A stretch of DNA of 4,771 bases from the IMG/VR virus record IMGVR_UViG_2585427761_000018. One strand, written 5' to 3'. Below, piece by piece: positions 1-4,771 of this stretch. The notes beneath the pieces are model-generated. The model was not told the DNA's origin. It did no database searches and saw only the letters and a program-made list of their open reading frames with translations. The position numbers were made by a program, and so were the translations under genes. The stretch comes from a virus. Lineage: Duplodnaviria; Heunggongvirae; Uroviricota; Caudoviricetes. Numbering within the stretch: the stretch's first letter is position 1; every line of letters starts with the position of its first letter.

Positions 1-272
1 CCAGCCGATAATGCTGCGACCGGTTTTCCGTCTTTCAGTGCCGGGGCGCAATTTCCTTTTTCGTGCACATGAAAACCATGAATGCCTTCAGACAGAGAGT
101 GAAGGGCTGGTGTGAACAGCAGACCGTAGGGGGTCTCCTGAATGGTTATTTTTCCAATGCTGACTTCTTTTCCGTCAGCACTGACAAGGTTCATTGGGAC
201 TTCCTGTTCTGCTGCGTATCCGCATGATGCTGCTGTCAGCATGGCAATGGCAGCAATGATTTTACATTTCAT
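1..272 (-). CDS. sodC: Periplasmic Cu/Zn superoxide dismutase, N-terminal 90 codons; gene continues beyond the left edge of the window
   Basis: Hand translation of the minus strand from the ATG at 272..270: MKCKIIAAIAMLTAASCGYAAEQEVPMNLVSADGKEVSIGKITIQETPYGLLFTPALHSLSEGIHGFHVHEKGNCAPALKDGKPVAALSAG. Hydrophobic N-terminal signal peptide, then the GFHVHE-KG-C motif and overall pattern of bacterial SodC (E. coli SodC has ...GFHIHAKGSC..., recalled from memory). SD-like GAGGG lies 4 nt upstream of the ATG on the minus strand (complement of about 277..281). Not in the supplied ORF track, presumably because it has no stop inside the window. Confidence 0.88.
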   Translation of the reverse strand, partial: MKCKIIAAIAMLTAASCGYAAEQEVPMNLVSADGKEVSIGKITIQETPYGLLFTPALHSLSEGIHGFHVHEKGNCAPALKDGKPVAALSA

Positions 273-405: not shown

Positions 406-3400
406 ATGGGTAAAGGTGGCGGCAGGGCGCACACGCCGGTTGAGGCAAAGGACAATCTTAAGTCCACGCAGATGATGAGCGTGATTGATGCCATTGGTGA
501 AGGGCCGATTGAAGGTCCGGTGAAGGGGCTGCAGAGTATCCTGGTGAACAAAACCCCGCTGACGGACACGGACGGCAATCCTGTGATACATGGTGTGACA
601 GCGGTCTGGCGCGCCGGGGAGCAGGAGCAGACACCACTGGAAGGCTTTGAGTCCTCCGGAGCTGAAACCGGACTGGGCGTGGAAGTGACGAAGGCAAAAC
701 CGGTGACGCGCACCATTACATCCGCGAACATTGACCGCCTGCGGGTCACCTTCGGGGTGCAGTCACTGTTGGAGACCACCTCAAAGGGCGACCGTAATCC
801 CTCTTCTGTCCGACTGCTGATTCAGTTGCAGCGTAACGGTAACTGGGTGACGGAAAAGGATGTCACCATTAACGGCAAGACCACCTCACAGTACCTGGCG
901 TCGGTGATTCTGGAGAATCTGCCTGAGCGGCCCTTTAACATCCGGATGGTCCGGGAGACAGCGGACAGCACCCCGGACCAGCTGCAGAATAAGACGCTCT
1001 GGTCGTCATACACCGAAATCATCGATGTGAAACAGTGCTACCCGAACACGGCGATTGTGGGGCTGCAGGTGGATGCGGAGCAGTTTGGCGGTCAGCAGAT
1101 GACGGTGAACTACCATATCCGAGGTCGCATCATCCAGGTGCCGTCAAACTATGACCCGGAAAAACGCACTTACAGCGGCATCTGGGACGGCAGCCTGAAA
1201 CCGGCATACAGCAACAACCCGGCCTGGTGCCTGTGGGACATGCTGACTCACCCGCGCTACGGCATGGGAAAACGTCTGGGGGCGGCAGACGTGGACAAAT
1301 GGGCGCTGTATGCCATCGGGCAGTACTGCGACCAGACGGTCCCGGATGGTTTCGGGGGCACAGAGCCGCGGATGACCTTTAATGCGTACCTGTCACAACA
1401 GCGTAAGGCGTGGGACGTTCTCAGTGATTTCTGCTCGGCGATGCGCTGTATGCCGGTATGGAACGGCCAGACGCTGACGTTCGTTCAGGACCGCCCGTCG
1501 GATGTGGTGTGGCCGTACACCAACTGCGATGTGGTGGTGGATGATAACGGCGTGGGGTTTCGCTACAGCTTCAGCGCCCTGAAGGACCGCCACACGGCGG
1601 TGGAGGTGAATTACACCGACCCGCAGAACGGCTGGCAGACCTCCACGGAACTGGTGGAAGACCCGGAAGCCATACTGCGCTACGGGCGCAACCTGCTGAA
1701 GATGGATGCGTTCGGTTGCACCAGTCGCGGTCAGGCCCACCGTGCCGGGCTGTGGGTGATAAAGACCGGACTGCTGGAAACGCAGACGGTGGATTTCACG
1801 CTCGGGTCTCAGGGGCTGCGTCACACACCCGGTGACATCATTGAAATCTGTGATAACGACTATGCCGGGACCCTGACCGGCGGACGTGTCCTGTCCATTG
1901 ATGCTGCCACCCGCACCCTGACGCTGGACCGTGAAGTGACACTTCCGGAGACCGGTGCCGCCACGGTGAACCTGATTAACGGCAGCGGTAAGCCGGTGAG
2001 TGTGGACATCACCGAACACCCCGCGCCGGACCGGATACAGGTCAGTACCCTGCCTGATGGTGTGGAGACATACGGGGTGTGGGGACTCTCCCTGCCGTCA
2101 CTGCGCCGTCGCCTGTTCCGCTGTGTCTCCGTCCGGGAAAACACGGACGGCACCTTTGCCATCACGGCGGTGCAGCACGTACCGGAAAAAGAAGCCATCG
2201 TGGATAACGGTGCCCGCTTTGAGCCGCAGTCAGGTTCCCTGAACAGCGTCATCCCACCGGCAGTGCAGCACCTGACGGTGGAGGTGAGCGCAGCTGACGG
2301 CCAGTATCTGGCGCAGGCGAAATGGGACACGCCGCGGGTGGTGAAGGGTGTGCGCTTCAGTCTGCGCCTGACCAGTGGTAAGGGAACGGATGCCAGACTG
2401 GTGACCACCGCCATCACCGCAGACACGGAGCACCGTTTCAGCGGCCTGCCGCTCGGGGAATACACCCTGACGGTGCGGGCGATAAACAGCTATGGCCAGC
2501 AGGGTGAACCTGCCACCACCACCTTCCGGATTGCCGCACCGGCAGCACCGTCGCGGATTGAGCTGACGCCGGGCTATTTTCAGATAACCGCCACGCCGCA
2601 TCTTGCCGTTTATGACCCGACGGTACAGTTTGAGTTCTGGTTCTCGGAAAAGCGGATTGCGGATATCAGGCAGGTTGAAACCGCAGCCCGCTATCTTGGC
2701 TCGGCGCTGTACTGGATAGCTGCCAGTATCAATATCAAACCGGGCCATGATTATTATTTTTATATCCGCAGTGTGAATACTGTTGGCAAATCGGCATTTG
2801 TGGAGGCTGTTGGCCAGCCGAGTGATGATGCATCCGGCTATCTGGATTTTTTCAAAGGAGAGATAGGGAAAACCCATCTGGCTCAGGAGTTGTGGACGCA
2901 GATTGATAACGGTCAGCTTGCGCCTGATCTGGCTGAAATCAGGACGTCCATTACGAATGTCAGCAATGAAATCACGCAGACCGTCAATAAAAAACTGGAA
3001 AATCAGAGCGCGGCAATCCAGCAGATACAGAAAGTTCAGGTTGATACAAATAATAACCTGAACAGCATGTGGGCCGTGAAACTGCAGCAGATGAAGGACG
3101 GACGCCTTTATATTGCGGGTATCGGAGCCGGTATTGAGAATACGCCAGCAGGTATGCAGAGTCAGGTGCTTCTGGCTGCTGACCGGATTGCGATGATTAA
3201 TCCTGCGAATGGCAACACAAAGCCGATGTTTGTTGGTCAGGGCGATCAGATATTCATGAACGAAGTGTTCCTGAAATACCTGACGGCTCCCACCATTACC
3301 AGTGGCGGTAATCCTCCGGCATTTTCCCTGACACCGGACGGGCGGCTGACGGCGAAAAATGCCGATATCAGCGGTAACGTGAATGCGAACTCCGGGACGC

Positions 3401-3879
3401 TCAACAACGTCACGATTAACGAAAACTGTCGGGTTCTGGGAAAACTGTCCGCCAACCAGATTGAAGGCGATCTCGTTAAAACAGTGGGCAAAGCTTTCCC
3501 CCGGGACTCCCGTGCACCGGAGCGGTGGCCATCAGGGACCATTACCGTCAGGGTTTATGACGATCAGCCGTTTGACCGGCAAATTGTTATTCCGGCGGTG
3601 GCATTCAGTGGCGCTAAGCATGAGAGAGAGCATACTGATATTTACTCCTCATGCCGTCTGATAGTGCGGAAAAACGGTGCTGAAATTTATAACCGTACCG
3701 CGCTGGATAATACGCTGATTTACAGTGGTGTTATTGATATGCCTGCCGGTCACGGTCACATGACGCTGGAGTTTTCGGTGTCAGCATGGCTGGTAAATAA
3801 CTGGTATCCCACAGCAAGTATCAGCGATTTGCTGGTTGTGGTGATGAAGAAAGCCACCGCAGGCATCAGTATCAGCTGA
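406..3879 (+). CDS. J: Lambdoid phage host-specificity protein J (tail tip / central tail fibre), 1157 aa
   Basis: Single uninterrupted ORF. N-terminus [38 protein letters not shown]... and long internal stretches (e.g. [141 protein letters not shown]) closely match lambda J as I recall it. Size is close to lambda J (1132 aa). Followed by lom and stf as in lambda. Confidence 0.96.
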
Positions 3880-3897
3880 ATTTTATAACCCATATAC

Positions 3898-3922
3898 GGG
3901 CGCCAGAAATGGCGCCTTTTTT
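3898..3922 (+). terminator. Putative rho-independent terminator between J and lom
   Basis: GGCGCC (3899..3904) pairs with GGCGCC (3911..3916) around a 6-nt loop AGAAAT, followed immediately by TTTTTT (3917..3922). It starts 19 nt after the J stop codon. Confidence 0.6.
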
Positions 3923-3935
3923 ATTGCAGAAAAGC

Positions 3936-3941
3936 GAGAGG
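3936..3941 (+). promoter_or_regulatory. Ribosome-binding site of lom (GAGAGG, 5-nt spacer to ATG at 3947)
   Basis: Shine-Dalgarno-like motif at the right distance from the lom start codon. Confidence 0.6.
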
Positions 3942-3946
3942 TAATT

Positions 3947-4546
3947 ATGCGTAGACTTTATGCCGCCATTTTGTCCGCAGCCATTTGTCTGGCCGTATCC
4001 GGTGCGCCTGCATGGGCGTCTGAACATCAGTCCACGCTGAGCGCGGGGTATCTTCATGTCTCGACGAACGTTCCTGGCAGCGATGATCTTAACGGGATTA
4101 ACGTGAAATACCGTTATGAGTTTACGGACACACTGGGGATGGTGACGTCGTTCAGCTATGCAGGAGACAAGAATCGCCAGCTTACCCGTTACAGCGATAC
4201 CCGCTGGCATGAAGATTCCGTTCGTAACCGCTGGTTCAGCGTAATGGCGGGGCCGTCTGTACGCGTGAATGAATGGTTCAGCGCGTATGCGATGGCGGGT
4301 GTGGCTTACAGCCGTGTGTCGACTTTCTCCGGGGATTATCTCCGCGTAACTGACAACAAGGGGAAAACGCACGACGTGCTGACCGGAAGTGATGACGGTC
4401 GCCACAGCAATACCTCTCTGGCGTTGGGGGCTGGCGTGCAGTTTAACCCGACCGAATCCGTGGCCATTGATATTGCTTATGAAGGCTCCGGCAGTGGTGA
4501 CTGGCGCACTGACGGTTTCATCGTGGGTGTCGGTTATAAGTTCTGA
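3947..4546 (+). CDS. lom: Lom-like outer-membrane beta-barrel protein (Ail/Lom/OmpX/PagC/Rck family), 199 aa; lysogenic-conversion cargo gene
   Basis: N-terminal signal peptide [24 protein letters not shown] with AWA|S cleavage motif. Internal [12 protein letters not shown] and SVMAGP...[12 protein letters not shown] motifs. C-terminus [26 protein letters not shown] ends in an aromatic residue as expected for an OMP barrel, and matches lambda Lom from memory. Sits between J and stf as in lambda. Confidence 0.92.
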
Positions 4547-4572: not shown

Positions 4573-4599
4573 AGCCCGCCGGTTCAGGCGGGCTTTTTT
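4573..4599 (+). terminator. Putative rho-independent terminator downstream of lom
   Basis: Perfect 7-bp GC-rich stem GCCCGCC (4574..4580) / GGCGGGC (4587..4593), extendable by an A4573-T4594 pair, with loop GGTTCA, followed by TTTTTT (4594..4599). It lies 27 nt after the lom stop. Confidence 0.75.
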
Positions 4600-4610: not shown

Positions 4611-4771
4611 ATGGCAGTAAAGATTTCAGGTGTACTGAAAGACGGCACAGGAAAACCGGTAAAGAACTGCACCATTCAACTGAAAGCCAGACGGACCAGC
4701 AGCACGGTGGTGGTGAACACGGTGGCCTCTGAAAATCCGGATGAAGCCGGTCGTTACAGCATGGACGTTGA
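4611..4771 (+). CDS. stf: Side tail fibre protein, N-terminal 53 codons; gene continues beyond the right edge of the window
   Basis: ATG at 4611 preceded by G-rich SD-like GGGGTG. Translation MAVKISGVLKDGTGKPVKNCTIQLKARRTSSTVVVNTVASENPDEAGRYSMDV is near-identical to the N-terminus of lambda Stf (orf-401) as recalled, and the gene sits immediately after lom as in lambda. Not in the supplied ORF track because it has no stop inside the window. Confidence 0.85.
   Translation, partial: MAVKISGVLKDGTGKPVKNCTIQLKARRTSSTVVVNTVASENPDEAGRYSMDV

Follow-up and report, generated by a model that had tools for sequence, protein, structure and literature searches.

The window is a 4771-bp stretch of DNA and comprises the whole of contig JOQE01000084.1 from draft assembly GCA_000713935.1. 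It contains the 5′ part of a Cu/Zn superoxide dismutase gene (sodC), gene J, a terminator-like hairpin, lom, a second terminator-like hairpin, and the beginning of stf. Gene J (nt 406–3879, plus strand, as are all features of J described below) is an intact open reading frame of 1157 codons plus a stop codon (nt 3877–3879). It encodes the tail tip attachment protein, or central tail fibre protein.

The sodC fragment (nt 1–272, minus strand) lies directly upstream of J on the opposite strand and is the only upstream gene in the window; its 3′ end is lost at the contig end. sodC is a cargo gene located between the tail assembly genes and J, likewise in O157:H7 prophages. The near-identical locus of an O157:H7 strain contains homologues of the tape measure gene and of M, L, K, and I upstream of J.

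Downstream of J, a strong hairpin resembling an intrinsic terminator, with a T-run, spans nt 3898–3927 (plus strand). The hairpin itself (nt 3898–3917) has an 8-bp stem with six GC pairs and is followed by TTTTTATT. Terminators are annotated at the same post-J site in phages 21 and 434. The next gene, lom (nt 3947–4546, plus strand), encodes an Ail/Lom outer-membrane β-barrel that matches the Pfam family Ail_Lom over its full length (E = 1.9e-118). A hairpin search located a second strong hairpin of this kind with a T-run after lom (nt 4573–4594, plus strand), so that lom is flanked by two such elements; a terminator is also annotated after the lom homologue of phage 434. The window ends within stf, the side tail fibre gene, of which the first 53 codons are present (nt 4611–4771, plus strand). 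The position of lom downstream of J is the same as in lambda, and the succession of lom and stf places J in a lambdoid tail cluster. O157:H7 prophages share the gene order of the window.

In a comparison with 5,426 complete E. coli genomes, the closest match to the whole window is 97.3% identical, and the region is present in a median of 2 and up to 10–15 copies per genome. No complete genome exceeds 97.3% over the whole window, yet the segment encoding the C-terminal receptor-binding domain (RBD) of J has 100% matches on its own. The contig could have arisen as a mosaic in nature, or its sequence could be a consensus assembled from several prophage copies. J is disrupted in its closest relatives: J of VT1-Sakai (positions 990–4462 of locus L002) is annotated as two coding sequences, "truncated by a mutation", and gpJ of O157:H7 strain 8368 (positions 3406–6881 of locus L005) is annotated as a frameshifted pseudogene; J of the window is intact.

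In principle, J could be left over from a defective prophage, or the assembly could have joined several prophage copies into a chimera, and the RBD would then have no current function in this genome. The origin of the window as a complete contig from a multi-copy region, the mixed identities of the whole window and the RBD, and the disrupted J genes of close relatives would all suit such a reading. However, the reading frame of the window J is uninterrupted and encodes all six J domains, the expected terminator, lom, and stf follow it, and the mixed identities are equally explained by natural mosaicism. A non-functional J is thus highly improbable, and the prophage presumably makes functional virions.

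Architecture of J and its receptor-binding domain

The window J aligns with lambda J (NC_001416) over its full length (1157 and 1132 aa, respectively) with 68% identity in a global alignment. Pfam recognizes six J domains in it, each with a score above the cut-off: FNIII-A_GpJ, Phage-tail_3, Ig_J, Ig_J_second, Phage_Tail_Tip, and Ig_GpJ_C. The full-length homology and the series of domains identify the protein as a lambda-type tip attachment protein. The identity is unevenly distributed in the global alignment, amounting to 76.3% over aa 1–820, 18.6% over aa 821–890, and 75.4% over aa 891–1004. The last segment, aa 1005–1157, aligns without gaps and is 42.5% identical (65 of 153 residues).

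The most diverged block (aa 821–890, nt 2866–3075, 19% identical to lambda) was not described in the earlier note. It corresponds to the α-helical shaft and includes a 28-residue insertion that is absent from lambda and 434. Phage 21 J is 96% identical to the window over aa 801–1004, the insertion included. Residues 809–861 of the lambda shaft refold upon receptor binding, according to the lambda J structure paper. The longer shaft of the window protein may have a bearing on fibre length or triggering.

The shaft is followed by a conserved β-prism that forms the central straight fibre (aa 891–1004, nt 3076–3417). This segment is 75% identical to lambda and 96% identical to phage 21. Through aa 999, its coding sequence matches lambda at 24–28 of every 30 nucleotides. 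The junction at which engineered chimeras have been grafted, lambda aa 964, falls inside the prism and corresponds to window aa 990.

The C-terminal RBD, assigned from alignments, Pfam, and a structure model, comprises aa 1005–1157 (nt 3418–3876) and belongs to the 1A2/VT1-Sakai allele type. It is 98.7% identical to the RBD of VT1-Sakai, 68.5% to that of phage 21, and 43% to that of 434. Its core, aa 1027–1157 (nt 3484–3876), matches the whole Pfam profile PF12421 (Ig_GpJ_C) with 128.4 bits against a cut-off of 26.2 (E = 2.5e-37).

The earlier note had singled out this domain as a diverged lambda-type C-terminus. The 153-residue peptide that it quoted is present exactly as aa 1005–1157, but its start at nt 3420 is 2 nt out of frame. 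The divergence from lambda is borne out by the 42.5% identity of the domain, compared with 76% over aa 1–820. Identity above 90% to the lambda C-terminus, which the note had named as evidence against its proposal, is far from being reached at 42.5%. The high identity to lambda aa 979–1132, including residues 1012 and 1107, that characterizes the LamB-specific lambda allele is likewise absent. As to the scaffold motifs said to be kept from lambda, WPSGT (aa 1041–1045), DDxPFDRQIV (aa 1052–1061), and GIS near the end are found in both proteins, but VDMPAG is not, as the window reads IDMPAG and only DMPAG is shared. The lambda RBD otherwise occupies the same position in the protein and has the same Ig-like fold and an equal length.

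The relationship to solved structures is evident at the sequence level. The C-terminus matches the solved lambda J chain with a phmmer E value of 1.8e-76, and its last 229 residues match the A8 gpJ chain with E = 4.6e-98 and the lambda chains with about 1e-76. An exhaustive search found 140 members of the whole RBD family among 1.84 billion cluster representatives. This search supplied the diversity for the alignment and the model, whereas a word-indexed search returned only near-identical matches. The AlphaFold2 model of the RBD, built from 23 representative sequences, is all-β with nine strands (pLDDT 82.8, pTM 0.77). The best matches of the model, which the earlier note had called for, are four solved J RBDs, each with a Foldseek probability of 1.00. 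They are A8 gpJ in the closed state (9wca) and bound to EDL933 OmpC (9wcb), with TM scores of 0.80–0.81, and lambda J in the closed state (8xck) and with LamB (8xcj), with TM scores of 0.82–0.83. According to the model, the window RBD has the Ig-like β-sandwich fold of the solved J RBDs.

Four segments of the RBD are highly variable in an alignment with one representative per RBD type. Segment 1 (aa 1030–1043, nt 3493–3534) has a conservation of 0.30, is an indel hot spot, and forms a loop between strands of the model; it contains the equivalent of lambda position 1012, with an offset of +26 between window and lambda numbering. Segment 2 (aa 1068–1082, nt 3607–3651; conservation 0.43–0.53) corresponds to lambda 1048–1049 and carries insertions in 15 of 20 rows of the alignment; in other types they reach 12 residues. 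R1074 (nt 3625–3627) lies in this segment, at the counterpart of lambda 1048, and is replaced by lysine in 1A2 and VT1-Sakai. Segment 3 (aa 1095–1103, nt 3688–3714; conservation 0.37) is a turn between model strands 88–95 and 99–107 and corresponds to lambda 1077–1078. Segment 4 (aa 1122–1139, nt 3769–3822; conservation 0.49) corresponds to lambda 1107 and to loop 127–137 of the model, and other types have deletions at aa 1133–1135.

Each segment falls within a loop of the model or next to one. With the +26 offset, the four segments coincide with the natural indel hot spots of lambda J at 1012, 1048–1049, 1077–1078, and 1107 (Maddamsetti et al. 2018), and the differences between the window and lambda RBDs cluster in them. 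The laboratory shift of lambda to OmpF needs residues 1012 and 1107 (Maddamsetti et al. 2018). In the lambda–LamB complex, four loops at the bottom of the RBD enter the extracellular lumen of the receptor. The hot spots serve here as a proxy for these loops, as the text of the structure paper describes loops L1–L4 without residue numbers. By this analogy and from the model, the four variable segments are probably the receptor-contact loops. The conserved motifs, which lie in other turns and strands, are plausibly the scaffold.

Allele identity and module exchange

Brödel et al. (Nature 2024) fused the J C-termini of natural prophages to lambda J at aa 964 and screened the chimeras on a ΔlamB host. 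Two of them that work on ΔlamB cells, A8 and 1A2, were chosen, and both genes are printed in the supplement. The machine-read text of the two genes contains many indels and fragmented a plain tblastn search, and a frameshift-tolerant dynamic programming alignment of protein to DNA was used instead. The window is identical to gpJ 1A2 at 141 of 148 readable codons over aa 1005–1157, and to gpJ A8 at 90 of 148. Five codons of the 1A2 text are unreadable, and four or five of the mismatches, including an in-frame stop, lie beside damaged passages. F1067L is among the mismatches beside damaged text and could be real. The only clean mismatches are R1074K and S1155T.

At both positions, 1A2 has the residues of VT1-Sakai, whose RBD is identical to that of the window at 151 of 153 positions (98.7%), with K1074 and T1155 in place of R1074 and S1155. 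VT1-Sakai agrees with 1A2 at all undamaged codons. Exact DNA words of the window are absent from the 1A2 supplement, in which the 3′ end of 1A2 is recoded. Near-identity to 1A2/VT1-Sakai extends over the entire grafted segment (window aa 990–1157), and gpJ 1A2 has the same length, motifs, and indel pattern as the window RBD. By sequence, 1A2 is the allele of the O157 prophages VT1-Sakai and PPompW, and two conservative substitutions separate the window from this allele. The proteins differ in their bodies: that of the 1A2 chimera is from lambda, whereas the window combines a phage 21-like shaft with an N-terminus similar to those of O157 prophages.

A8 is a more distant relative. Its RBD is that of phi330 and of the 9wca chain, and is 67% identical to the window over 229 aa (overall range 60–67%). 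Relative to the window, five residues are inserted in variable segment 2 of A8, and four are deleted from its segment 1. Among the classical phages, A8 is closest to phage 21, with about 80% identity between the RBDs.

The window-type RBD (95–99% identity) is represented by about 56 records in the phage collection, including VT1-Sakai, PPompW prophages, Stx2a_WGPS2, and JLK-2012; 35 phage records are at least 99% identical to the window RBD at the protein level. The other types are about 65% (phage 21), about 60% (Stx1a-phage type), 43% (lambda), and 40% (434) identical to it. Of 5,426 complete E. coli genomes, 3,384 are hit by a 450-nt RBD query, with a median of two and up to ten copies per genome; identity is at least 95% in about 2,500 of the records, and two genomes match at 100%. 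A large protein database contains hundreds of near-identical entries (93–99%) from E. coli and Shigella. The window allele type is the commonest J tip in E. coli prophages.

The nucleotide sequence of J changes partner abruptly around the RBD. Against lambda, the similarity drops from 24–28 to 12–15 identical nucleotides per 30 between aa 1000 and 1010, with the breakpoint at about nt 3415–3433. Against phage 21, 24–29 of 30 nucleotides are identical until aa 1029 and only 12 of 30 from aa 1030, with the breakpoint at about nt 3493. Phage 21 shares the first 25 residues of the C-terminal region with the window, but from aa 1030 on its RBD core represents another allele.

Four-fold synonymous sites in identical codons tell the same story. 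The window and phage 21 differ at 42–44% of these sites over aa 1–800, at 21.7% over aa 801–1004, and at 71.7% in the RBD, a value close to saturation. The similarities of the J body and the tip are also uncoupled across phages. The nucleotide identity of the body and the amino acid identity of the RBD are 96.1% and 98.7% for VT1-Sakai, 94.4% and 62.0% for Stx2a_F349, 91.8% and 39.9% for Stx2_EH1846, and 88.9% and 99.3% for Stx2a_WGPS2.

The synonymous jump at the boundary, the sharp partner-specific breakpoints, and the uncoupling of body and tip agree with the receptor-binding-domain swapping proposed in the earlier note. The sequence comparisons indicate an exchange of old RBD alleles as modules rather than fast divergence in situ. 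Maddamsetti et al. (2018) reached the same conclusion for the "specificity region" of J. The RBD would be an old cassette that evolves independently and is passed between J genes by recombination, with the conserved prism sequence upstream of it as the likely crossover site.

Receptor of the J tip

The receptor of the 1A2 tip has been characterized by DNA delivery with chimeric lambda particles that carry an engineered side fibre, rather than by adsorption or plaque formation of a native phage. In such assays on MG1655 ΔlamB ΔompC cells expressing single OmpC alleles, 1A2 gave 76–99% delivery for 20 of 23 alleles (Brödel et al. 2024). Delivery of the GFP cosmid was 98.3% with OmpC G17, but only 2%, 1.5%, and 0.9% with G1, G2, and G40, respectively (Brödel et al. 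2024). PDB entry 9wcb names G17 as EDL933 OmpC, and the G1 values are those of the panel labelled OmpC-MG1655 in the source data of PMC11338833. Wild-type MG1655, which has LamB and the K-12 OmpC, allowed about 5% delivery (PMC11338833). A 2025 preprint from Eligo on STEC reports that gpJ-1A2 recognizes EDL933 OmpC and not LamB, and that EDL933 OmpC is common to all 121 O157 strains examined.

One set of source data is at variance with the rest. In Extended Data Fig. 2 of PMC11338833, panel C (OmpC-EDL933) repeats the 1A2 and A8 values of panel B (OmpC-MG1655). The repeated values conflict with Fig. 1b, Extended Data Fig. 1 (G17), and Extended Data Fig. 8a, in which delivery by 1A2 via EDL933 OmpC is about 98%. 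Panel C probably results from a copying mistake in the source file. The positive result for 1A2 therefore rests on Fig. 1b and Extended Data Figs. 1 and 8a.

The A8 tip also has OmpC as its receptor class, and its fold is the same as that of the window model. The long-tailed Stx phage phi330, with an A8-type tip, fails on the Keio ΔompC strain and is rescued by complementation, and 9wcb contains A8 gpJ with EDL933 OmpC. A8 differs from 1A2 in also accepting the K-12 OmpC.

The earlier note had proposed an outer-membrane receptor other than LamB. This proposal is supported by the near-identical 1A2, which works without LamB and needs a compatible OmpC; among J proteins of known receptor, with which the note had suggested a comparison, the closest one tested is the OmpC-type 1A2. 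The argument behind the proposal, that divergence from lambda points to another receptor, led to the right conclusion but does not hold by itself. Phage 21, with an RBD 47.7% identical to that of lambda, is equally diverged, but its native receptor is reported to be LamB; divergence from lambda alone therefore predicts no receptor change. One mutation in phage 21 J adds the use of OmpC, and a single mutation can change receptor choice in the J family. The conclusion that the receptor is not LamB is drawn from the near-identity of the window to a tested allele, not from its divergence.

Phage 21 also raises the question of whether the window RBD, despite its divergence, still uses LamB. It combines low identity to lambda with native use of LamB, and at 68.5% it is the closest classical relative of the window RBD. 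However, 1A2 delivers into 76–99% of cells that lack LamB when these have a suitable OmpC, and hardly enters wild-type MG1655 in spite of its LamB. In addition, the window and phage 21 differ most in the four presumed contact segments, and their identity collapses from aa 1030 on. Continued use of LamB by the window RBD is extremely unlikely.

The most likely receptor of the window J, judging from its near-identity to 1A2, is OmpC. Taken as a whole, the RBD is very probably the OmpC-binding tip of the widespread VT1-Sakai/gpJ-1A2 allele in a lambdoid prophage, which binds through its variable loops and is exchanged as a recombining cassette. We infer that the two-residue variant found in the window behaves as 1A2 does. 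The cassette itself, of OmpC type (1A2/VT1-Sakai), is common and already known: the modularity of J was published in 2018 and the OmpC specificity of this allele in 2024–2025. A preprint predicting receptors for 255 coliphages covers GpJ of the Drexlerviridae type, excludes the lambda C-terminus, and has nothing on the 1A2-type allele. The "PhiR" ECOR phages are the top nucleotide match, and the SNIPE paper gives no receptor typing for their J.

Another possibility is that the RBD binds a different outer-membrane protein, such as OmpF, FhuA, BtuB, or OmpX, or that R1074 and S1155 shift its specificity away from the alleles recognized by 1A2. R1074 lies at a hot spot of indels and receptor shifts, and single mutations in phage 21 J can add the use of OmpC or OmpF. 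J of Gifsy-1 binds OmpC, OmpX, and BtuB. Against this, the K/R and T/S substitutions are both conservative. Both variants are also common, with exact RBD DNA at 100% in complete genomes and the 35 phage records at 99% or above. Furthermore, 1A2 shows no delivery into cells having only a non-permissive OmpC, so no other component of the K-12 surface acts as its receptor. A receptor of this kind is accordingly given little probability. R1074 in segment 2 may still change the range of OmpC alleles recognized; that the R1074/S1155 variant sees a set of OmpC alleles other than that of 1A2, or an extra receptor, is improbable, though slightly less so than use of LamB. If true, R1074/S1155 would represent a natural fine-tuning step in the tracking of porin alleles by prophages.

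OmpC binding by the window J would proceed as follows. The RBD (aa 1005–1157) would form a trimeric Ig-like domain at the tip of the central tail fibre of the lambdoid prophage. Its four variable loops would attach to the trimeric porin OmpC on its extracellular side, and not to LamB. The OmpC of O157 and of most other E. coli would be recognized, and the K-12 allele would not. As in lambda, receptor binding would trigger a rearrangement of the fibre, and the tail would open for DNA ejection. Lambda itself binds LamB, and a loop of OmpC clashes with the open state of the lambda RBD (lambda J structure paper).

The assignment has practical consequences. A J protein with a C-terminus of the window type can be annotated as "OmpC-type (1A2/VT1-Sakai allele), not LamB". 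This label helps to predict which strains can be infected by such prophages, including long-tailed Stx phages. Engineered lambda delivery particles directed against O157 already carry the 1A2 tip.

The RBDs of phage 21 (positions 4001–4465 of locus L003; LamB) and of A8/phi330 (positions 19900–20607 of locus L007; OmpC) are about 80% identical and differ in receptor, which means that the receptor class changes within a narrow sequence distance. A comparison of the two could locate the residues that switch between LamB and OmpC.
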